Positions 7,185 to 43,868 of a stretch of 64,000 bases of DNA are shown in pieces. The notes under the pieces were generated by a model. That model saw only the letters and a list, made by a program, of their open reading frames with translations, had not been told where the DNA came from and made no database searches. This stretch comes from Methylocystis sp. (lineage in GTDB: Bacteria; Pseudomonadota; Alphaproteobacteria; Rhizobiales; Beijerinckiaceae), in assembly GCA_016178015.1 (NCBI GenBank), contig JACOUB010000058.1, forward strand, positions 17,395 through 81,394, given 5' to 3'. The position numbers were made by a program, and so were the translations under genes. Positions within the stretch are counted from its first letter, which is position 1, and every line of letters begins with the position of its first letter.

Positions 7185-9083
<1,899 letters not shown>

Positions 9084-9118
9084 CTACTGACGCTTCGAGC
9101 TATCGAGCGACTGCCGCG

Positions 9119-9206
9119 TTGGCCTTCCCTTCGCCGGCATGACCCGGATCAGGTTCGATGGGTGCTTCTCAGCCGCTCTCGTTGAGCGGCGCCCCTCGCC
9201 ATTCAA
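9119..9206 (-). ncRNA. TPP (thi-box) riboswitch
   Basis: Minus strand reads GGCTGAGAAGCACCCATCGAACCTGATCCGGGTCATGCCGGCGAAGGGA, directly upstream of thiC. Confidence 0.95.
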
Positions 9207-9370: not shown

Positions 9371-9703
9371 TCACAGCCCCAACACCTGCCGCACGCCCTT
9401 CTCGACGGCTTCGAGATCAGCGGGCGACAATCTGCCCATGGCGTTCTTCAGTCGGCGCTTGTCGATTGTGCGCACCTGCCCGCAGAGCGCCGTCGAAGTC
9501 GCCATGCCTGCCGACGGCGCCGAGACGACGAGAGGCGGCAGGGGGCGCGGCGACGACGACAGGGGCACGACAACCACCGTGCGCAACTTCTTGTTGAAGG
9601 CAGAAATCGACAGGATCACGCAAGGTCGCGCCGCGCCCTGTTGTTCGCTGCCGATCGTCGGTTCGAGATCGACGCGGTAAATGTCGCCACGTCCAATGCT
9701 CAT
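9371..9703 (-). CDS. PemK/MazF-family type II toxin
   Basis: RGDIYRVDLEPTIGSEQQGAARPCVILS, ALCGQVRTIDKRRL. Confidence 0.93.
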   Translation of the reverse strand: MSIGRGDIYRVDLEPTIGSEQQGAARPCVILSISAFNKKLRTVVVVPLSSSPRPLPPLVVSAPSAGMATSTALCGQVRTIDKRRLKNAMGRLSPADLEAVEKGVRQVLGL

Positions 9704-9945
9704 GGTTGCTCGTCGAGGCCGTCGGCGCTGGTTATGTCGAAGGCGTCAACATCGCCGCGGGCTTGGGCAAAATCGGGATGCGTCTCAAACTCGGCCGCAA
9801 GCGCCTCCAGTTGCCCCGTACGCTCGACGAGCGCACGCCGCATGAGCGCTTGCACGACCTTGCTGCGCTCGCCGGGAGGAACGAGTTCGTTGAACTTGAG
9901 CAGCACGTCTGGCTCGATCGTATAGGAGGCGCGCAGCGTCGGCAT
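9700..9945 (-). CDS. Cognate antitoxin, probably ribbon-helix-helix
   Basis: 81 aa, 4-nt overlap with the toxin, acidic C-terminus. Confidence 0.82.
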   Translation of the reverse strand: MPTLRASYTIEPDVLLKFNELVPPGERSKVVQALMRRALVERTGQLEALAAEFETHPDFAQARGDVDAFDITSADGLDEQP

Positions 9946-10366
9946 GTGAAGCAGCTCTTTGAGGGGTATGTAGTATTATTGCATACCATATAGCATGGCC
10001 GGAGAAGCGCGCAAGGGCGGAATATTTTAGACGTTCCACTACCCAACAGAGCATGTGTCGAGCAGAACAATGAAAAAGCTGGATGCTTGTTTTGGGTAAC
10101 GAGAAGACACGTCGGACGCCGGAAGCGCTGACTGCAAACTGGGCGGATAACGCGCTTTTGGAATGTCGCGTGAAGCGAGCGCATGCCGCTTTTCAAGCAG
10201 CGGCCGCGCGAAACTGTGGCAAATACGTGACATCGCCACAATAATTGCCGTTTCCGCCGCCGTACGCTGCCTGTTTGCGTGAGCTCTGCTAATTTGCACG
10301 CAAGCTTTAGCGTTACCCCGGTTGGCGGCTCCTCCCTGGTCGAGCGCCGGTTGTCAACAAGGCGAA

Positions 10367-11776
10367 ATGAACATGCACAAGTCGGTGCGGCTCTCTCTCT
10401 TAATCACCTTGTCAGCGCTCGCCTTCGCCGCCGCCGATCCGGCGTCGGCCGCCGACGGCTATTTCCTGATCGGCTATGGCGCACGGCAAAAGGCGCTGGC
10501 CGGCGCTGATGTCGCCGACTCGCAGGACGCCATGGCGCTTTCGGTTAATCCCGCCGGCATCGTCGGCCTCGAACGGCAGTTTCAGGTCGGCATGACGGCG
10601 CTGCTGCCCGAACGCGGCTATTCCACGCAAGGCATGCCGGTCGTCCTCGCGCGGGGCAACGTGCGCAGCGAGCGCCCGATCTTTCCCGTGCCCAACGACG
10701 CCTATGTCGAGCCGATCGACGCCGATTCGGCCTGGGGTTACGCGTCCTACGCCAATGGCGGCATCAACACGGCCTATTCGTTCTGGAACTTCAAACAACC
10801 GATCTTCGCTCCTACGATCGGGGGCGTCACGCCGCTCATCGCCCCCTCGTTCGGCGGTCCGTTCGGCGGCGGGTTTGCCGGAGTGGACCTCGAGCAGGGC
10901 TTCGTCAGCGTCGGCTACGCCAGAAGGTTCGGCTCGGTGAGCGTCGGCGTCGCGCCGACGGCCGCTGTCCAGATCTTGAAAGTGCAGGGGCTGAGAACGC
11001 TTGCCGTCTATTCGTCCAATAGGTTCGAATTTTCCGACAACGGCTATGACTGGTCGGTCGGCGGCGGCGTCCGCGCCGGCGTCGAATGGCGGGCGACCAA
11101 GGAACTGCGCTTCGCCTTCGCGGGGTCGACGCCGATGTTCATGTCGGCGTTCGGCAAATATTCCGGCCTGCTGACCAACGCCGGCAGTTTCGACATTCCG
11201 GCCAATCTCACGGCGGGCGCCGCCTATGACGTGCTGCCCAACCTGACGCTCATGGCCGATTGGAAGCATATTTTCTATTCGGCCATCCCGGCGCTCGGCA
11301 ATTCGAGCTTCCCAATCTTGCCGAGCTCACTCGGCTCGCCCGACGGACCCGGCTTCGACTGGCGCGACACCGACTCCGTCGCGGTCGGCGTGGAATGGCG
11401 CGCGACCAAGGATATCGCCTTGCGCGCCGGCTATCATCACAGCAGCAATCCGATTAGAGCGCGCGCCGCCACGCTTGCCGTGCTCGCGCCGGCCATCGGC
11501 GAACATTTTATCGCCGGCGGCTTCAGCTATCAGGCGACGCAAAACTCGTCGATCGACTTCGCCACTGTCTATCAGTTCAAGAACTCGATCACCGGTCTCG
11601 AGGACGTTCCGTTTGTGGCGTTCTCCTATGCGCCGCTTCCGATCGCCGTCGCGATCCCGGCCCATTACAATACCAACGCGACGGTCACGACCTGGCTGCG
11701 CGGCCTCGAATTCGCGCTCAGCTGGACCTACAAATTCGATCCCGGCACGACCAACTGGCTGCCGACTCATCTGTGA
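10367..11776 (+). CDS. FadL/OmpP1/TodX-family outer-membrane hydrophobic-compound channel
   Basis: Signal peptide, then DGYFLIGYGARQKALAGA and ALSVNPAG (hatch NPA motif); beta-barrel pattern. Confidence 0.9.
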   Translation: MNMHKSVRLSLLITLSALAFAAADPASAADGYFLIGYGARQKALAGADVADSQDAMALSVNPAGIVGLERQFQVGMTALLPERGYSTQGMPVVLARGNVRSERPIFPVPNDAYVEPIDADSAWGYASYANGGINTAYSFWNFKQPIFAPTIGGVTPLIAPSFGGPFGGGFAGVDLEQGFVSVGYARRFGSVSVGVAPTAAVQILKVQGLRTLAVYSSNRFEFSDNGYDWSVGGGVRAGVEWRATKELRFAFAGSTPMFMSAFGKYSGLLTNAGSFDIPANLTAGAAYDVLPNLTLMADWKHIFYSAIPALGNSSFPILPSSLGSPDGPGFDWRDTDSVAVGVEWRATKDIALRAGYHHSSNPIRARAATLAVLAPAIGEHFIAGGFSYQATQNSSIDFATVYQFKNSITGLEDVPFVAFSYAPLPIAVAIPAHYNTNATVTTWLRGLEFALSWTYKFDPGTTNWLPTHL

Positions 11777-11804
11777 GAAGACGCCAACCGCCTTGGATAT
11801 TGTC

Positions 11805-11942
11805 CGTCATGCCCACGCTTGTCGCGGGCATCCACGCCACGACATCGCGGGACGATGGAAGACTTAGTGCGACGTTACGCTCGACCTCGTATCGCTTCGC
11901 AATGTCCCGGCGTGGATGGCCGGGACGAGCCCGGCCATGACG
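11805..11942. repeat. CGTC-tagged REP/MITE-like inverted pair (family 1, reverse orientation)
   Basis: CGTCATGCCCACGCTTGTCGCGGGCATCCACGCC...GGCGTGGATGGCCGGGACGAGCCCGGCCATGACG; homologous copies at 14203 and 34738. Confidence 0.9.
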
Positions 11943-12023: not shown

Positions 12024-13133
12024 TCACCCTTTGACGATCGTCGGCGGGGCGCGGCGCGACTGCGTCTCCAGCAGGGTTTTCACCTTGGCCGCGAGGTTGA
12101 GATAGATCGCCGCATGCGGCCCCTGCGGAGCGGCGCCGACGACCGGCTGCCCGGCGTCCGACGTTTCGCGAATCGTCGCGTCCAACGGGACCTCTCCCAA
12201 AAAGGCGACTTGCAGCGCCTCGGCGTCGCGGCGGGCGCCGCCATGGGCGAAAATATCGGTGCGGCCGCCGCAATGCGGACAGACGAAATAACTCATGTTC
12301 TCGATTACGCCGAGCACCGGGACCTCGACGCGCCGGAACATGGCGACGGCGCGGCGCGCGTCGATGAGCGCAAGGTCCTGCGGCGTCGAGACGATCACCG
12401 CGCCACTGAGCGGAACCTGCTGCGCCATGGTGAGCTGCGCGTCGCCGGTGCCGGGCGGCATGTCGACGACGAGACAATCCAGCTCGCCCCAGGCGACCTC
12501 GCCGAGCATCTGCGTCAGCGCCGACGAAACCATCGGGCCACGCCACACCATCGGCACATTCTCATCGATCAGAAAGCCGATCGACATGACCTTTATGCCG
12601 AAGGCCTCGAGCGGGATCATCTTGCCGCCCTCGACTTGCGGGCGGGCGCGAAGACCAAAGAGGCGCGGCGCCGACGGCCCATAGACGTCGGCGTCCAGCA
12701 GACCGACGCGCCACCCTTGCGCGGCAAGACCGAGCGCGAGATTGGCGGCGGTGGTGGACTTGCCGACGCCGCCCTTGCCGGAGGCGACGGCGATGACGAA
12801 ACGAATTTTGTCGAGGGTTGCGATCGCCGCGCGGCGCGGCGCGGCATGGGAAGGAGAGGCGCCGGCGCCAGAACTCGTCTTGGCTTGCGGCGCGCGCTCG
12901 GCGGTCAGCGTCACCACCGCCTGCTCGATGCCCGGAACGTTGCGCACGGCGCGCTCGGCGTCCCGCCGCACCTCTTCCATCGCTGTCGCTTGCTCTGGAT
13001 CAGCGGCAATGGAAACGAAAGCCTTGGCGCCCAGCACATTGATCCCGCTCACCGCGCCCGACGCGGCGAGCGAGCCGCCGCCCAAAGCCGCGACGCTCTC
13101 CAAGGCTTTCATTACGTCTGCTTCGCTCGCCAC
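12024..13133 (-). CDS. mrp: Mrp/ApbC/NBP35 Fe-S cluster carrier ATPase
   Basis: VASGKGGVGKST, DMPPGTGD, ENMSYFVCPHC. Confidence 0.96.
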   Translation of the reverse strand: MASEADVMKALESVAALGGGSLAASGAVSGINVLGAKAFVSIAADPEQATAMEEVRRDAERAVRNVPGIEQAVVTLTAERAPQAKTSSGAGASPSHAAPRRAAIATLDKIRFVIAVASGKGGVGKSTTAANLALGLAAQGWRVGLLDADVYGPSAPRLFGLRARPQVEGGKMIPLEAFGIKVMSIGFLIDENVPMVWRGPMVSSALTQMLGEVAWGELDCLVVDMPPGTGDAQLTMAQQVPLSGAVIVSTPQDLALIDARRAVAMFRRVEVPVLGVIENMSYFVCPHCGGRTDIFAHGGARRDAEALQVAFLGEVPLDATIRETSDAGQPVVGAAPQGPHAAIYLNLAAKVKTLLETQSRRAPPTIVKG

Positions 13134-13144
13134 TTTTTCACCGT

Positions 13145-13200
13145 GGACCGCGAGCCTTCAGGCTCGCGAGTTCGCCAGCGAGCCTGAAGGCTCGCGGTCC
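13145..13200. repeat. GGACCGCGAGCCTTCAGGCTCGC inverted REP pair (family 4)
   Basis: Perfect 23-bp inverted arms, each with an internal hairpin; copies at 25019 and 48260. Confidence 0.92.
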
Positions 13201-13203
13201 GAC

Positions 13204-14163
13204 TCACCCCAGCATCGCCGCTGGATGCTCGATGAGGCGCTTGAATTCGGCGAGAAGCGTCGCGCCGAGCGCGCCGTCGACGGCGCGATGATCGACCGAC
13301 AGCGTCACGCTCATGATCGTGGCGATCGCCGGCGCGCCATTTTTTACGACGACGCGCGGCTCGCCGGCGCCGACCGCGAGGATGGTCGCATGCGGCGGAT
13401 TGATCACCGCGGAAAAATTCTTCACGCCGAACATGCCGAGATTGGTCACGGCGCTGGTTCCGCCCTCGTATTCGTTGGGCTTCAATCGCCGCTCCCTGGC
13501 GCGCTCGGCCAAACCTTTCAGCTCTACCGAAATGTCGCGGATCGATTTGCTCTCGGCGTTGCGCACGATCGGCGTGATGAGCCCGCCCGGGATCGACACG
13601 GCGACGCCGACATCGCTGGATTTGTGACGCAGAAGCGCCTCCTGCGTGAAGGTTACGTTGACGTCGGGAACGCGTTGCAGCGCCAGCGCCATCGCCTTGA
13701 CGACAAGATCGTTGACCGAGATTTTCCACTCCGGCGCGCCGTCGGCGCCCTGCGGCGCGGCGCTGTTGTAGTCCTCGCGCACATGCAGCAAAGCGTCGAT
13801 CTCGCAGTCGATCTCGAGATTGAAATGCGGGATCGTGCGAATCGCCTCGGTCATCCGGCGGGCGATCGCCTTGCGCATCGAGTCGTGCGGGATTTCCTCG
13901 TATGAGCCCGGCGCGAACAGTTTGCGCACGACGGCGTCCGACATGCCGGCCGGCGCCTCGACGCGAGCCGGCGCCGGCGCGGCCGAGACGCCGCTTTGTT
14001 GCGCTCTCCTCACATCGCGCTCGACGATGCGCCCCTGCGGGCCCGAGCCGGTGAGCGCCGCAAGATCGAGACCCGCCTCTTTCGCGAGACGGCGCGCCAG
14101 AGGCGAAGCGAAGACGCGCCCGTCGGCGCGAGAAGCATTTCCTTGGTCAGTTGCGAGCGACAT
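13204..14163 (-). CDS. pdhC: Dihydrolipoamide acetyltransferase (PDH E2) lacking an N-terminal lipoyl domain
   Basis: Starts at the subunit-binding domain (VFASPLARRLAKE...GSGPQGRIVERDV); catalytic DHRAVDG; no ETDKA motif. Confidence 0.92.
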   Translation of the reverse strand: MSLATDQGNASRADGRVFASPLARRLAKEAGLDLAALTGSGPQGRIVERDVRRAQQSGVSAAPAPARVEAPAGMSDAVVRKLFAPGSYEEIPHDSMRKAIARRMTEAIRTIPHFNLEIDCEIDALLHVREDYNSAAPQGADGAPEWKISVNDLVVKAMALALQRVPDVNVTFTQEALLRHKSSDVGVAVSIPGGLITPIVRNAESKSIRDISVELKGLAERARERRLKPNEYEGGTSAVTNLGMFGVKNFSAVINPPHATILAVGAGEPRVVVKNGAPAIATIMSVTLSVDHRAVDGALGATLLAEFKRLIEHPAAMLG

Positions 14164-14202
14164 GCTTCTACGCTCGCCACGCAAGATGTTGATCCGTCAG
14201 CG

Positions 14203-14343
14203 CGTCATGGCCGGGCTTGTCCCGGCCATCCACGCCAGGACGCGACAGGAAATCTTCATGCAGAAGCATGAACGCTCCTCCTCTCTTTCGGAACGCATTG
14301 CAGCTTGTCGGCGTGGATGCCCGCAACAAGCGCGGGCATGACG
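14203..14343. repeat. CGTC-tagged REP/MITE-like inverted pair (family 1)
   Basis: CGTCATGGCCGGGCTTGTCCCGGCCATCCACGCC...GGCGTGGATGCCCGCAACAAGCGCGGGCATGACG. Confidence 0.92.
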
Positions 14344-14367
14344 GGCAAATGTTTTTCGCCATGATCC

Positions 14368-15846
14368 TCACCTGTAGAGCACCGCCCGCGCCGCCGCGAC
14401 GACCTCGGCGATGGAAGGGAGCGCCAATTTTTCGAGATTGGCGGCGTAGGGCATCGGCACGTCCTTGCCGGTCACGCGCGCGACCGGCGCATCGAGATAA
14501 TCGAACGCCTCCGCCATCACCTTGGCGGCGATCTCGGCGCCGATCCCGCATTGCGGCCAGCCCTCTTCGACGGCGACGCAGCGGCCGGTCTTCTTCACCG
14601 AAGCGACGATCGCCGCGACATCCATCGGCCGCAGCGTGCGCAAATCGATCACCTCGGCCTCCACCCCCTCCTTGGCGAGTTCGTCAGCGGCGCCGAGGGC
14701 GTAACTCATGCCAATCGAAAACGAGACGAAGGTCACATCCTTGCCCTCGCGTGCGACGCGCGCCTTGCCAATGGGAATGAGGAAATCCTCGATGTTGGGC
14801 ACCTCGGACTGCCGGCCATAAAGAATTTCGTTCTCGAGGAAGATCACCGGATTGGGATCGCGAATGGCGCTCTTGAGCAGCCCCTTGGCGTCGGAAGCGT
14901 TCGACGGCGCGATGACCTTGAGGCCGGGAACCTGCGCGAACCAGGCGGCGTAGTCCTGACTGTGCTGGGCGGCGACGCGCGCCGCTGCGCCGTTGGGGCC
15001 GCGAAAGACGATCGGGCAATTGATCTGCCCGCCGGACATGTAAAGCGTCTTGGCGGCGGAATTGATAAGGTGGTCCATCGCCTGCATGGCGAAATTGAAG
15101 GTCATGAATTCGACGATCGGCCGCAGTCCAGCAAACGCCGCGCCGACGCTTAAGCCCGCGAAACCATGCTCGGTAATGGGCGTGTCGACGACGCGGCGCG
15201 CGCCGAATTCCTGCAACAGACCTTGCGTCACCTTATAGGCGCCCTGATATTCGGCGACCTCCTCGCCGATAATGAAGACGTTTGGATCGCGCCGCATCTC
15301 CTCGGCCATGGCGTCGCGCAGCGCTTCGCGCATGGTCATGGAGGCGAAGGTCGCGTCGGCCGGAATTTCCGGCGCAACGGGGCGAGCGGCAGGAGCAGGC
15401 GCGGGCCTCGCAGGCGGCCTCTGCTCTTCGCCTCTAGCGGGGGGCGCGCGCTCTTCCTCGCCTTTGGCAAACGGCGCCGCGGGGACCTCGGCTGAGCTTG
15501 CCTCCTCGCCTTTGGCGGGGGGGGCGCGCTCTTTCTCGCCTTTGCGCTCTTCCTCGCCTTTGACGGCGGGCGCCGCGGGGACCTCTGCTGAGCTTGCCTC
15601 CTCGCCCTCGCCGGCGATCACGGCGATCGGCGTATTGACGGCAATGTTCTCGGTCCCGGCTGGCGTCAAGATGCGCGCCAGCACGCCCTCGTCTGCCGCC
15701 TCCACCTCCATCGTCGCCTTGTCGGTCTCGATCTCGGCGATGACGTCGCCGGCCTTGACATGATCGCCCTCGCTTTTCAGCCACTTGGCGAGCTTGCCCT
15801 GCTCCATGGTGGGCGACAGCGCCGGCATCAATACGTTGACGGTCAT
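14368..15846 (-). CDS. pdhB: Pyruvate dehydrogenase E1 beta with N-terminal lipoyl domain
   Basis: [12 protein letters not shown]...[13 protein letters not shown] lipoyl domain; [14 protein letters not shown]; DTPITE. Confidence 0.97.
15448..15606. repeat. 63-bp direct duplication (96-bp period) in the pdhB linker
   Basis: 15448-15510 vs 15544-15606, encoding [13 protein letters not shown](A/F)(V/A)KGEEER twice. Confidence 0.9.
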
Positions 15847-16039: not shown

Positions 16040-17059
16040 TCACATCACCACGTCCGTCCACAATTCGCTCGGATCCGGCTCGCGATCCTCCGAGGCGAAA
16101 TCGGCCGCATCGGCCACGATTTTGCGCACGGCGGCGTCAATCTTCTTCAATTCGTCCTCGCTCGTCCGCCCATCGGCAATGAGGCGCGCGCGCACCTGTT
16201 CGATCGGATCATGCTCTTCGCGCATTTTCTGCACTTCTTCCCTGGATCGATACTTCGCCGGGTCGGACATCGAGTGGCCGCGATAGCGGTAGGTTTGCAT
16301 CTCCAGAAGATAGGGGCCATTGCCCTTGCGGCACCAATCGATGGCGGCGCCCGCCGCCGCCTTGACCGCACGCACGTCCATCCCATCGACGCGCAGTCCA
16401 GGAATATTGAAGGCCACCCCGCGCTTGGAGAATTCCGTTTGCGCAGAAGAGCGCTCCACCGAAGTTCCCATGGCGTAGCGATTGTTCTCGACGATGAAGA
16501 CGACCGGCAGCTTCCACAACTCCGCCATGTTGAAGGTCTCGTAGACTTGACCCTGATTGGCCGCGCCCTCGCCGAAAAAGGTGAGCGAAACGCTACCGTC
16601 GCCGCGATAGCGATTGGCGAAGGCGAGTCCCGCGCCGATGGGCGCCGGCGCGCCGACGACGCCATGGCCGCCGAAGAAATTCTTCTCCCGCGAGAACATG
16701 TGCATGGAGCCGCCCTTGCCCTTGGAATAACCGCTGCGCCGTCCGGTGAGTTCGGCCATCACGCGCTTGGGGTCCATCCCGCAAGTCAGCATATGAGCGT
16801 GATCGCGGTAGGCGGTGATGAACTGGTCGCTGTCGCGCGCCGCCATGCGCACGCCGACGACGACCGCTTCCTGACCGATATAGAGATGGCAAAAGCCGCC
16901 GATCAGGCCCATGCCGTACATCTGGCCGGCCTTTTCCTCAAAACGGCGAATGAGCAACATGGCGCGATAGGCGGCGAGCTCCTGCTCGGGGTCGAGCGCC
17001 GGCGCCGCCGCGCCTGCGGCTTCTCCGGCCTCCGTCTCGACTTTGCTCGCCGCCGCCAT
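16040..17059 (-). CDS. pdhA: Pyruvate dehydrogenase E1 alpha
   Basis: GFCHLYIGQEAV, GKGGSMHMF, GEGAANQGQ, YRYRGHSMSDP. Confidence 0.98.
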   Translation of the reverse strand: MAAASKVETEAGEAAGAAAPALDPEQELAAYRAMLLIRRFEEKAGQMYGMGLIGGFCHLYIGQEAVVVGVRMAARDSDQFITAYRDHAHMLTCGMDPKRVMAELTGRRSGYSKGKGGSMHMFSREKNFFGGHGVVGAPAPIGAGLAFANRYRGDGSVSLTFFGEGAANQGQVYETFNMAELWKLPVVFIVENNRYAMGTSVERSSAQTEFSKRGVAFNIPGLRVDGMDVRAVKAAAGAAIDWCRKGNGPYLLEMQTYRYRGHSMSDPAKYRSREEVQKMREEHDPIEQVRARLIADGRTSEDELKKIDAAVRKIVADAADFASEDREPDPSELWTDVVM

Positions 17060-17213
17060 GAATGCGCATCCTCTCCGATTCAACTAATACAGGATAGCCG
17101 AATACGAAGATGGAGACGAGGCTCTCGCGGAATAACGGCGTCACGTCAATCGGATTGCTCCCGCAACAGAAATGTAGTAATGTAGATACAATCTGATTTC
17201 GGGGACATGAATC

Positions 17214-17471
17214 ATGGGTGTCACCACCTTGTCGAGCCGTGAAGTCAATCAAGACATTGGCCGCGCAAAACGGGCGTCGAAAAAGGGGCCGGTGGTCATC
17301 ACTGATCGCGGGCGGCCAGCGCATGTTCTGCTCACCTACGAGGACTTCCGGCGTTTGACCGACGGCGAGCCCGGCATCCGGGCGTTGTTGGACCAGCCGG
17401 GACTCGAGGAGATCGAATTCGATCCGCCCCGCCTCGGGCAAGGGCTGTTCCTGCCGGCAGATCTCGCGTGA
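17214..17471 (+). CDS. Phd/YefM-family antitoxin
   Basis: TTLSSREVNQDIGRAKRAS.KGPVVITDRGRPAHVLL. Confidence 0.92.
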   Translation: MGVTTLSSREVNQDIGRAKRASKKGPVVITDRGRPAHVLLTYEDFRRLTDGEPGIRALLDQPGLEEIEFDPPRLGQGLFLPADLA

Positions 17472-17887
17472 CGTATTTGCTCGATACGAACGTGCTTTCG
17501 GAATTGCGCCGGCGCGACCGGACCGATGCGAACGTCGCCGCTTGGGCGGACAGCGTTCGAACGTCTTGTCTCTATCTTTCTGTCATTACCATCTTGGAGA
17601 TCGAAGCAGGCGCCCTGATGATCGAACGTAGGGACAGCGCCCAGGGAGCAATCTTGCGGGAATGGATCGACAAGAGGGTGCTTCCAGCGTTCGAGGGACG
17701 GGTGCTTGCGGTCGATGTGCCGGTGGCTCGGTGTTGCGCGCGTCTCCATGCGCCAAATCCCCGCGCGGAAAGAGACGCATTGATCGCCGCGACGGCGATC
17801 GTCCACCGCATGACCGTAGTCACGCGCAATGTGAGAGACTTCGCCCCGATGGGTGTGAAGACGTTCGATCCATGGACGGCGCGTTGA
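17468..17887 (+). CDS. VapC/PIN-domain toxin
   Basis: YLLDTNVLSELR, RDALIAATA, VVTRNVRDF. Confidence 0.94.
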   Translation: MTYLLDTNVLSELRRRDRTDANVAAWADSVRTSCLYLSVITILEIEAGALMIERRDSAQGAILREWIDKRVLPAFEGRVLAVDVPVARCCARLHAPNPRAERDALIAATAIVHRMTVVTRNVRDFAPMGVKTFDPWTAR

Positions 17888-17918: not shown

Positions 17919-18272
17919 TCAGCGGCCGGCGGGACCGGACGACGGCGGCAGCAGAATGACGACTTCGTTGCGATGCACGCGGCCGAGCAGCGCGCGGGCC
18001 TGCTCATCGAGGATGTCGGAATCGACCATGTCGCCGCGAATGAGGCCGATCTTACGCTCCCACTGGCTACGCTCGGCCTGCAGCGTATCGAGCTCCTGAC
18101 GCAATTCGCCAATGCGCTGCTCATATTCCACGCCGGCCTTCAGACCGCTCTGACCATTGACGCCGTGCCAAACGAAATAGCCCGCGACCGGCCCGACCAC
18201 GCCGTAGAGACTCACGGGAAGCACGAGCGAACGCAGGAAGTTGCGAATGTCCATGCCGGCAGCTTGCGCCAA
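17919..18272 (-). CDS. ftsB: Septum formation initiator FtsB/DivIC family
   Basis: TM segment, GYFVWHGVNG, coiled coil, DILDEQARALLG; upstream of pdhA as usual in rhizobia. Confidence 0.85.
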   Translation of the reverse strand: MAQAAGMDIRNFLRSLVLPVSLYGVVGPVAGYFVWHGVNGQSGLKAGVEYEQRIGELRQELDTLQAERSQWERKIGLIRGDMVDSDILDEQARALLGRVHRNEVVILLPPSSGPAGR

Positions 18273-34666: not shown

Positions 34667-34737
34667 TTTATACAAATCGGAACCCGACCCACGAGGACAA
34701 TGTCATATCAGCGGCGCAAAATTTTGACCTATCAGCG

Positions 34738-34878
34738 CGTCATGGCCGGGCTTGTCCCGGCCATCCACGCCGGGACGTGACAGAAAATCCTCAAAGGGCA
34801 GCGGGCACGTCCCGCCTCTCTTTCGGAAGTCGTAACGGCTTGTGGGCGTGGATGCCCGCGACGAGCGCGGGCATGACG
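34738..34878. repeat. CGTC-tagged REP/MITE-like inverted pair (family 1)
   Basis: Same arms as 14203-14343, with similar spacer blocks and flanks. Confidence 0.92.
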
Positions 34879-35046
34879 GGTAAATATTTGTCGCCTTTCG
34901 TCCGGTGGCGGTCGCGCCAAATCTCGATTTCTACAGATAATTCTTAAGGCAACGCCGGCCCTTACCTTTTGCTCCCGCCGCGCCTATTTCGTGTTAAGCG
35001 CGTTCTCGTCGCCACGCCGGCCTTGACCCGGACGCGGAGGAAATCG

Positions 35047-43436: not shown

Positions 43437-43564
43437 GCAAGGACTCGCAGCAAACGTGGGCCGTCACTGCGAAGGGTCTCTGCCCACCCGGCGGCGATGA
43501 CGCCCGGCATGGGTTTCGGCCGCCTCGGTGCACCCCGCCCGACGCTTTCGCGCGTGACCACGAA

Positions 43565-43745
43565 CGATGGCAGGTCTCCTGGCTCGCGGGTCGTCGCCTC
43601 GGACCGCCTTCCCAGGAACGCGCTCGTCCCAGTGGCCTATCGGTCATCGGCTGGCCGCTCACAGTTGCGGGGGCAGCTGCGGCATCGCGCGCATCGAAGC
43701 GCTCACCGCATTCCCATTTGATCCCTTAAAGGGAACCATCGTTTC
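43565..43745 (-). ncRNA. Cobalamin (AdoCbl-type) riboswitch
   Basis: Minus strand: GGTTCC...GGGAATGCGGTG...GCCGCAGCTGCCCCCGCAACTGTGAGCGG...GCCACTGGGA...CTGGGAAGGC...GCGAGCCAGGAGACCTGCCATC. Confidence 0.95.
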
Positions 43746-43868
43746 CATTTGACACGCTGATCGCCTAATGGTCAAGGCGCCGGCGCACGATTGGCCAAGC
43801 GTCAAACGGCCACTAGGGCATAGCGCGCAAACTGGCTAAAGTCGAAGCCGCTGATTCGACGGTGGTCC

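Follow-up and report, generated by a model that had tools for sequence, protein, structure and literature searches.

A pyruvate dehydrogenase E2 without a lipoyl domain in Methylocystis and Methylosinus, and the E1-beta-borne lipoyl arm that may serve it

Introduction

The lipoyl arms of the pyruvate dehydrogenase (PDH) complex belong, in the textbook account, to the E2 core, from which they channel intermediates between the surrounding active sites. How, then, is a PDH locus to be understood whose E2 gene encodes a subunit-binding domain and a complete catalytic domain and no lipoyl domain at all? Such a locus lies in a 64-kb stretch of contig JACOUB010000058.1 (the window; 64,000 nucleotides in full), which comes from a groundwater metagenome-assembled genome (MAG) of Methylocystis sp. 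Its minus strand carries, in this order, pdhA for E1-alpha, pdhB for an E1-beta that has a lipoyl domain of its own, the E2 gene, and an mrp/apbC-type gene.

The answer that we favor, and hold to be probable, is that the E2 of the window has permanently lost its lipoyl domain together with the inner linker, and that it serves a working PDH complex in which the arm borne by E1-beta would be the sole swinging arm. A wider proposal, for which the case appears to us evenly balanced, would extend this to the PDH of Methylocystis and Methylosinus at large: the only arm would sit on the peripheral E1-beta, the E2 core would be bare and E3 unlinked, and the arrangement would have evolved repeatedly. 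Activity would then hang on the non-covalent occupancy of the core by E1, which would be the molecular cause of the PDH activity that has been “missing” from extracts for 50 years.

Domain Structure of the E2 Protein

The E2 gene (13204..14163, minus strand) encodes a separate protein of 319 residues, in which an N-terminal tail of 16 residues is followed by the peripheral subunit-binding domain (PSBD), a linker, and the acetyltransferase catalytic domain. The PSBD (residues 17–52; 14008..14115, minus strand), which runs from FASPLARRLAKEAGLDL to GSGPQGRIVERDV, matches PF02817 over the entire profile (positions 1–36 of 36, 62.7 bits), and the catalytic domain (13210..13908, minus strand) matches PF00198 over positions 2–231 of 232 (258.5 bits). 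These are the only two Pfam domains in the open reading frame, and the lipoyl profile PF00364 is without a match. The His/Asp motif DHRxxDG is kept as DHRAVDG. An earlier interpretation of the window made from its letters and open reading frames (the sequence-only reading) had described the protein in just this way, as 319 residues that begin at the subunit-binding domain and include an intact DHRAVDG motif, and the Pfam result agrees with it. The protein has its own PSBD and is not fused to an E1 polypeptide, as the acyltransferase of OdhA is.

The profile TIGR01349 (PDHac_trf_mito) covers the protein at positions 134–436 of 437 only, with a score of 389.5 bits that falls below the cutoff of 445; as the score lies under the equivalog cutoff, NCBI gives such proteins the generic name “2-oxo acid dehydrogenase subunit E2”. 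Judged by this alignment, the E2 of the window is an E2p orthologue of the TIGR01349 type from which approximately the first 133 profile positions, comprising the lipoyl domain and the inner linker, are missing. The nearest solved structures are the mitochondrial 60-mer E2p cores 8piu, 6ct0, and 7uom, which align with residues 13–318 (E of about 1e-75), and the catalytic domain is aligned over its whole length with cores such as 8piu and 6ct0, in 8piu through the DHRAVDG motif.

Continuity of the pdhB–E2 Region

Could a real lipoyl domain be concealed here by a misassembly at a repeat, a frameshift, or a wrongly chosen start codon? The window belongs to a metagenome bin, and the 204-bp spacer between pdhB and E2 consists mostly of a high-copy repeat that breaks short-read contigs, both of which speak for such an artefact. 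The repeat is a 147-bp dispersed element resembling a miniature inverted-repeat transposable element (MITE), with inverted arms of 37 nt (14200..14346, with no strand assigned). Parts of it recur twice in the window, at about 34727–34894, which is the fullest of these copies, and at about 11801–11941. The depth of metagenome contigs is approximately 1700–1950 over the element versus approximately 13 in its flanks, which indicates that the element is present at very high copy in this population. The element translates into a peptide of the “...VDGRDKPGHD...” type.

Short-read assembly breaks solely inside this repeat, and the evidence on either side of it argues against concealment. An in-frame TGA stop codon (14197..14199, minus strand) lies 33 nt before the ATG of E2, so the open reading frame cannot be extended upstream. 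A Logan contig from an independent metagenome run (X1, record 4) is unbroken over 13544–14217 and thus contains the interior of E2, the start codon, the stop codon, and the repeat arm in one piece, and further contigs of the same groundwater study lead from the repeat into the 3′ end of pdhB (14207–14537 and 14315–15324). Closed isolate chromosomes have the same architecture; in a Methylosinus chromosome, the called pdhB and E2 genes are only 4 nt apart, and the architecture is found in more than 100 independent protein clusters of 302–345 residues, which bear the name Methylocystis or Methylosinus wherever their source gives one. An assembly error, which the sequence-only reading had named as a possible refutation, is excluded by the upstream stop in a continuous contig and by the identical layout in closed chromosomes, and we regard the chance of any such artefact as vanishingly small.

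The spacers likewise hold no lipoyl remnant in any frame. A sensitive tblastn search with E2-type lipoyl domains and linkers against 18 spacers, namely that of the window and those of 17 other lipoyl-less loci, returned low-complexity linker noise only; a pseudogenised lipoyl domain in the pdhB–E2 spacers was rejected on this ground. That the spacer of the window contains no ETDKA-type lipoyl sequence and is mostly a repeat had been noticed from the letters alone. Beyond the lipoyl domain of PdhB, no further one is present in the 64-kb window, and no additional lipoyl domain was found within 10 kb on either side of any of the mapped lipoyl-less loci.

The Lipoyl Domain of PdhB

The pdhB gene (14368..15846, minus strand) encodes an E1-beta of 492 residues with an N-terminal lipoyl domain, and is matched by NF008854, PF00364, PF02779, and PF02780. 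Against NF008854/PRK11892, the profile of E1-beta proteins with an N-terminal lipoyl domain, it scores 808.4 bits (cutoff 454) over the full length of the profile (1–464 of 464). The lipoyl domain itself occupies residues 1–85 (15592..15846, minus strand; located by tblastn) and is the sole lipoyl domain of the window; it matches PF00364 with 68 bits and carries the lysine motif ETDKA. The full lipoyl domain that the sequence-only reading had assigned to PdhB is thus present. The lysine K43 and the flanking residues of the lipoylation motif do not vary among the 16 PdhB sequences aligned, and the domain is 67–69% identical to the E2p lipoyl domains of sister lineages.

The lipoyl domain is followed by an Ala/Pro/Glu/Lys linker (15352..15591, minus strand) that is lengthened by a tandem duplication found by Tandem Repeats Finder (TRF) at 15455–15606 (period 48 nt, 3.2 copies, 65% matches). 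Counted from residue 80 of the lipoyl domain, the linker is 85 residues long, the longest among the 12 lipoyl-less loci measured (range 43–85 residues). An AlphaFold2 model of PdhB calculated from 16 aligned sequences reached a mean pLDDT of 45, too low to tell anything about disorder in the linker.

Distribution and Repeated Loss of the E2 Lipoyl Domain

The missing domain is a property of a whole group of relatives. In a search of 5.8 billion proteins, 116 of the best 120 matches to E2 are 302–331 residues long and contain PF02817 and PF00198 only, and two others (345 and 362 residues) have the same two domains behind a longer N-terminus. A lipoyl domain occurs in just two of these 120 matches, which are full-length proteins of 429 and 443 residues with 67–70% identity. 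Many of the best matches are named Methylosinus or Methylocystis and include proteins from complete chromosomes of 3.6–4.5 Mb. The orthologues in relatives, whose length had been suggested as a check, share the architecture of the window.

The lipoyl, PSBD, catalytic, E1-beta, and E1-alpha segments were mapped on 80 related loci and the window. A lipoyl-less E2, whose gene starts 10–25 residues before the PSBD, is found in 18 of these 81 loci: those of the Methylocystis/Methylosinus type (the window, L001–L008, L010, L012, L019–L021, and L033) and three Methylocella-like loci (L061, L063, and L080). In every lipoyl-less locus whose contig reaches the 5′ end of pdhB, the lipoyl domain of PdhB is present.

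A maximum-likelihood tree of the E1-beta core and the E2 catalytic domain was calculated for 64 loci, with the root not inferred. The Methylocystaceae (Methylocystis/Methylosinus) form a clade in which all 13 loci are lipoyl-less (SH-aLRT 100), a branch of its own beside the lipoyl-bearing E2p of other Hyphomicrobiales, and within which the locus of the window is placed next to Methylosinus as its sister. The window sequence itself was matched only by groundwater metagenome DNA runs in the sequencing-run search. The loss of the lipoyl domain requires three changes on this tree, at least two of which are forced by well-supported branches. As judged from these loci, the loss in the Methylocystaceae is an old and derived deletion, fixed throughout the Methylocystis/Methylosinus-clade loci examined.

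The Methylocella-like losses have left their junctions visible. In L061, L063, and P0122 the junction follows the pattern M[PS][AV]DIL joined to [KE]GDTR[IV]FASPLARR, as in MPADIL joined to KGDTRIFASPLARR, and in L080 and P0205 it has MPIEI joined to PGPRIFASPLARR; the full-length sister L045 still holds the intervening stretch, running on to GPRVFASPLARR. The deletions keep the first residues of the former lipoyl domain. The differing junctions, set against L045, mark these losses as clean and independent in-frame deletions, at least two in number. The closest lipoyl-bearing relative of L061 is 90% identical to it, which indicates that the Methylocella-like losses are recent.

The fate of lpdA, the gene for E3, differs between the groups. 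It directly follows E2 in nearly all lipoyl-bearing loci and also in the Methylocella-like lipoyl-less loci, whereas no Lpd gene was found within 10 kb of E2 in any locus of the Methylocystaceae clade; in this clade, E3 must consequently come from elsewhere. In the window, the mrp/apbC-type gene sits where sister lineages have lpdA, and no Lpd-like sequence occurs anywhere in the 64 kb, in keeping with the earlier remark that lpdA does not follow E2. Two Beijerinckia-like loci (L037 and L041) have kept the E2 lipoyl domain and have no lpdA within 10 kb downstream, so the unlinking of lpdA is not confined to loci whose E2 lost that domain.

In the window, E2 lies directly downstream of pdhA–pdhB, and the same holds for 14 of 15 loci of the clade. 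The exception is L019, a 1.6-Mb contig of a Methylocystis MAG in which the lipoyl-less E2 (9935–10897) stands behind an acyl-CoA dehydrogenase gene, apart from pdhAB and with no E1 genes within 10 kb, which reflects either a rearrangement or a misjoin. In two Methylosinus loci (L005, 9441–10001; L006, 2853–3386), an insertion of about 0.5 kb, which in L005 appears to hold a small open reading frame on the opposite strand, separates pdhB from E2; the E2 genes of these loci must have their own promoter or depend on read-through transcription. Two records are probably mislabelled or contaminated: L004, titled “Methylocapsa aurea isolate mcapsa msin_1”, groups within Methylosinus, and L055, a MAG titled “Janthinobacterium lividum”, groups within Lichenihabitans/Lichenibacterium.

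Selection on the Lipoyl-Less Complex

E1-alpha, E1-beta, the PdhB lipoyl domain, the PSBD, and the E2 catalytic domain are all under purifying selection. Pairwise dN/dS values, calculated by the Nei–Gojobori method within the lipoyl-less lineages, are 0.12–0.16 for the E2 catalytic domain, 0.21–0.30 for the PSBD, 0.07–0.10 for the E1-beta core, 0.08–0.095 for the PdhB lipoyl domain, and 0.09–0.15 for E1-alpha, and the values in lipoyl-bearing Methylocella are similar. A conservative Leu-to-Ile exchange is the single consistent difference of the Methylocystaceae at E2 positions with at least 90% conservation among 46 lipoyl-bearing relatives.

Expression and Physiology in Methylosinus trichosporium OB3b

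The Methylosinus chromosome mentioned above (L081; CP119869.1, 4.5 Mb) contains pdhA, pdhB (463 residues, with the lipoyl domain), a 319-residue E2 that starts 4 nt after pdhB, and a gene for a TonB-dependent receptor. The gene numbering of M. trichosporium OB3b, with METTOv1_340039 as pdhA, 340041 as pdhB, 340042 as pdhC, and 340043 as the TonB receptor, agrees with this locus in the order pdhA, unknown gene, pdhB, E2, TonB receptor. In the transcriptome supplement of PMC3615186, 340042 is labelled “dihydrolipoamide acetyltransferase (fragment)” and is expressed at 101–106 reads per kilobase per million (RPKM), with pdhA and pdhB at approximately 180 and 160 RPKM (PMC3615186). The same supplement lists two unlinked dihydrolipoamide dehydrogenase genes at 101 and 55 RPKM.

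Lipoyl arms might instead be supplied in trans, by a second full-length E2p, by the E2 of another 2-oxoacid dehydrogenase, or by a free-standing lipoyl protein, with the PdhB domain reduced to an accessory. The specificity that E1 enzymes show for the cognate lipoyl domain counts against such borrowing, and a domain of the cognate type, to judge by its identity to the sister E2p lipoyl domains, is encoded on PdhB itself, where it is constrained at least as much as the E1-beta core. Neither the 10 kb on either side of the lipoyl-less loci nor the window offers any other lipoyl domain, as described above. A precedent for supply in trans is found in corynebacteria, where OdhA borrows the lipoyl domains of AceF (PMC8146983), and the gene list of OB3b holds a second E2-like gene, METTOv1_190018, in addition to sucB. 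This “putative dihydrolipoamide acetyltransferase” (RPKM 9–12), the only other acetyltransferase-type E2 in that list, adjoins a “2-oxoisovalerate dehydrogenase beta subunit” (RPKM 6), according to the supplement of PMC3615186. With its own E1-beta of the branched-chain 2-oxoacid dehydrogenase (BKD) type, it forms a separate and nearly silent cluster, at RPKM 6–12 versus 100–180 for pdhABC. The term “lipoyl attachment” is absent from the OB3b gene list. On these points, taken from the OB3b gene list, the window, and the mapped loci, we consider a supply in trans quite improbable.

Whether PDH operates in these organisms at all has been answered differently by different methods. For type II methanotrophs, classical enzymology, as cited in PMC3615186 from Trotsenko (1976) and others, reported a PDH activity that was low or absent. 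13C data, in turn, indicate pyruvate-derived acetyl-CoA in OB3b, most likely formed via PDH, and a later genome-scale model includes the constraint that at least one third of acetyl-CoA is made via the pyruvate route. Malyl-CoA lyase provides another acetyl-CoA route that is open to serine-cycle methanotrophs (PMC7144005).

Proposed Mechanism and Its Weight

The sequence-only reading had raised two alternatives, a complex that has no swinging arm but the one on E1-beta, and a truncated E2 with a complete paralogue elsewhere. The first is the alternative that the comparative evidence favors: the lipoyl-less state is fixed in a deep clade and recurrent, it always stands beside a lipoyl-bearing PdhB, the parts are under purifying selection, and the genes are expressed in OB3b. 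A precedent for an E2 catalytic domain that works with lipoyl groups on another polypeptide is given by C. glutamicum OdhA and AceF (PMC8146983). On the biochemical side, we infer lipoylation of the PdhB domain and its movement between E1, E2, and E3.

In the mechanism that we propose, E2 would still form the catalytic core, probably as a 60-mer in the manner of the nearest solved structures, and its PSBD would bind E1 (alpha2beta2) and E3. Each bound E1-beta would carry a lipoyl domain at its N-terminus on a flexible linker of 45–85 residues, so that the swinging arm would be anchored at the periphery instead of the core. The lipoyl arm would be reductively acetylated at the E1 active site and swing to the E2 active site, where the acetyl group would be passed to CoA, and E3 would then reoxidise it. 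As the lpdA that sister lineages carry in the operon is missing, this E3 would have to be supplied by an unlinked lpd gene. Since the arm would be tied to the core only via the non-covalent contact between E1 and the PSBD, lower and strongly dilution-dependent activity is predicted. Such a dilution-sensitive activity could reconcile the low or missing PDH activity in extracts with the expression of the genes and with the 13C flux.

Several observations weigh against this mechanism. An E1-beta-borne lipoyl domain is not known to be lipoylated or catalytically competent in any organism, and a literature search turned up neither a functional study of the E1-beta lipoyl domain nor a description of a methanotroph E2p that lacks the domain. 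The linker of PdhB was not systematically lengthened after the E2 lipoyl domain was lost (median 63 versus 57 residues), and the PdhB domain shows no adaptive shift to E2-type residues and retains its “B-type” signature. Since the B-type residues are kept and the linker is not longer, the PdhB domain seems to have been competent already before the loss from E2. In the Methylocystaceae, the E2 catalytic domain is 68% identical to outgroups versus 79% for the lipoyl-bearing sisters, and the excess is smaller in the E1-beta core (78% versus 83%); this additional divergence of E2 suggests some relaxation or adaptation. OB3b also has the one further E2-like gene discussed above, and the low or missing activity of classical enzymology could mean instead that the complex is largely inactive.

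In a different reading, the cluster, having lost the E2 arm and the linked lpdA, would no longer act as an efficient NAD+-linked PDH; the complex would be crippled or repurposed, for a low-flux supply of acetyl-CoA, an E1-only reaction, or a structural role, and acetyl-CoA of pyruvate origin would be formed mainly by another route. The low activity reported for type II methanotrophs in the work cited by PMC3615186 would fit it, as would the moderate or weak expression of the pdh genes, the clade-wide loss of the operon lpdA, the faster evolution of the E2 catalytic domain, and the availability of malyl-CoA lyase for acetyl-CoA formation (PMC7144005). However, every part is under purifying selection in two genera and at greater depth, which extends to the catalytic His/Asp motif, the PSBD, and the motif of the lipoyl lysine, and DHRxxDG would not persist under a purely structural role. 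The 13C data and the constraint of the genome-scale model also speak for a pyruvate route that carries flux, most likely through PDH. We therefore consider a crippled or repurposed complex unlikely, and return to a working PDH with an E1-beta-borne arm.

If that account is true, an E2-borne arm would be dispensable where E1-beta carries one, and the long-unexplained lipoyl domain of alphaproteobacterial E1-beta would have a demonstrable function. It also offers a testable explanation for the long-reported low PDH activity of Methylocystis and Methylosinus methanotrophs. Missing PDH activity has long been invoked to explain why the metabolism of type II methanotrophs is restricted, yet the genes exist and are expressed, and the 13C data call for acetyl-CoA derived from pyruvate. 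Cultures of M. trichosporium OB3b and of several Methylocystis strains exist and are open to genetic work, so the hypothesis is directly testable. It is relevant to the engineering of acetyl-CoA and polyhydroxybutyrate (PHB) flux from methane, as well as to annotation, since lipoyl-less E2 genes carry “fragment” or generic E2 labels.

Neighboring Genes and Elements

Upstream of pdhB, pdhA (16040..17083, minus strand) encodes an E1-alpha of 347 residues (PF00676, 356 bits; TIGR03182, 499 bits with a cutoff of 394). Downstream of E2, a perfect palindromic element with a 23-bp stem (13145..13200, with no strand assigned) precedes the mrp/apbC-type gene (12024..13133, minus strand), which encodes an Fe–S cluster carrier ATPase (PF10609, 337 bits, and PF01883). 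The palindrome is repeated in the metagenome, where depth rises to approximately 134 and many contigs stop at it or are joined through it. A promoter and terminator scan of the pdh operon gave chance-level matches only.

Two type II toxin–antitoxin pairs flank the region. One (9371–9945, minus strand) consists of a PemK/MazF toxin and a small upstream open reading frame; the other (17214–17887, plus strand) consists of Phd/YefM and a PIN-domain (VapC) toxin, and is inserted between pdhA and a DivIC/FtsB-like gene (17919–18272) that is the usual predecessor of pdhA. Elsewhere in the window, a thiamine pyrophosphate (TPP) riboswitch (9108–9206, minus strand, 65 bits) lies upstream of thiC (7185–9017, minus strand; ThiC_Rad_SAM, 607 bits), which is an ordinary arrangement, and a cobalamin riboswitch lies at 43552–43755 (minus strand, 133 bits).

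Comparison with Known Systems

The PDH complex of Zymomonas mobilis, reportedly described by Neveling et al. in 1998 (J Bacteriol 180:1540; cited in PMC7494870), has an E1-beta with a lipoyl domain and an E2 with a single lipoyl domain of its own. The locus of the window resembles it in the gene order pdhA–pdhB–E2, in its NF008854-type E1-beta, and in an E2 that is orthologous over the PSBD and the catalytic domain; it differs in that E2 lacks the lipoyl domain and inner linker and in that lpdA is unlinked. The loci of sister Beijerinckiaceae are canonical in this respect, with lipoyl domains on both PdhB and E2 and lpdA downstream.

An acyltransferase domain that has no lipoyl domain of its own and is served by one on another polypeptide is also found in C. 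glutamicum OdhA (mycobacterial Kgd), in which the E2o catalytic domain relies on lipoyl domains carried by AceF, according to the summary of Hoffelder et al. (2010) given in PMC8146983. The catalytic domain of OdhA, however, is fused to E1o and borrows the E2 arms of another complex, whereas the E2 of the window is free-standing and has kept its PSBD, and its presumed donor is the E1-beta of its own complex. The 60-mer cores of mitochondrial E2p/E3BP (8piu, 6ct0, and 7uom) share the catalytic motif and an alpha2beta2-type E1 with the system of the window, but differ in where the arms sit: in mitochondria, one or two lipoyl domains belong to E2 and one to E3BP, and E1-beta has none.

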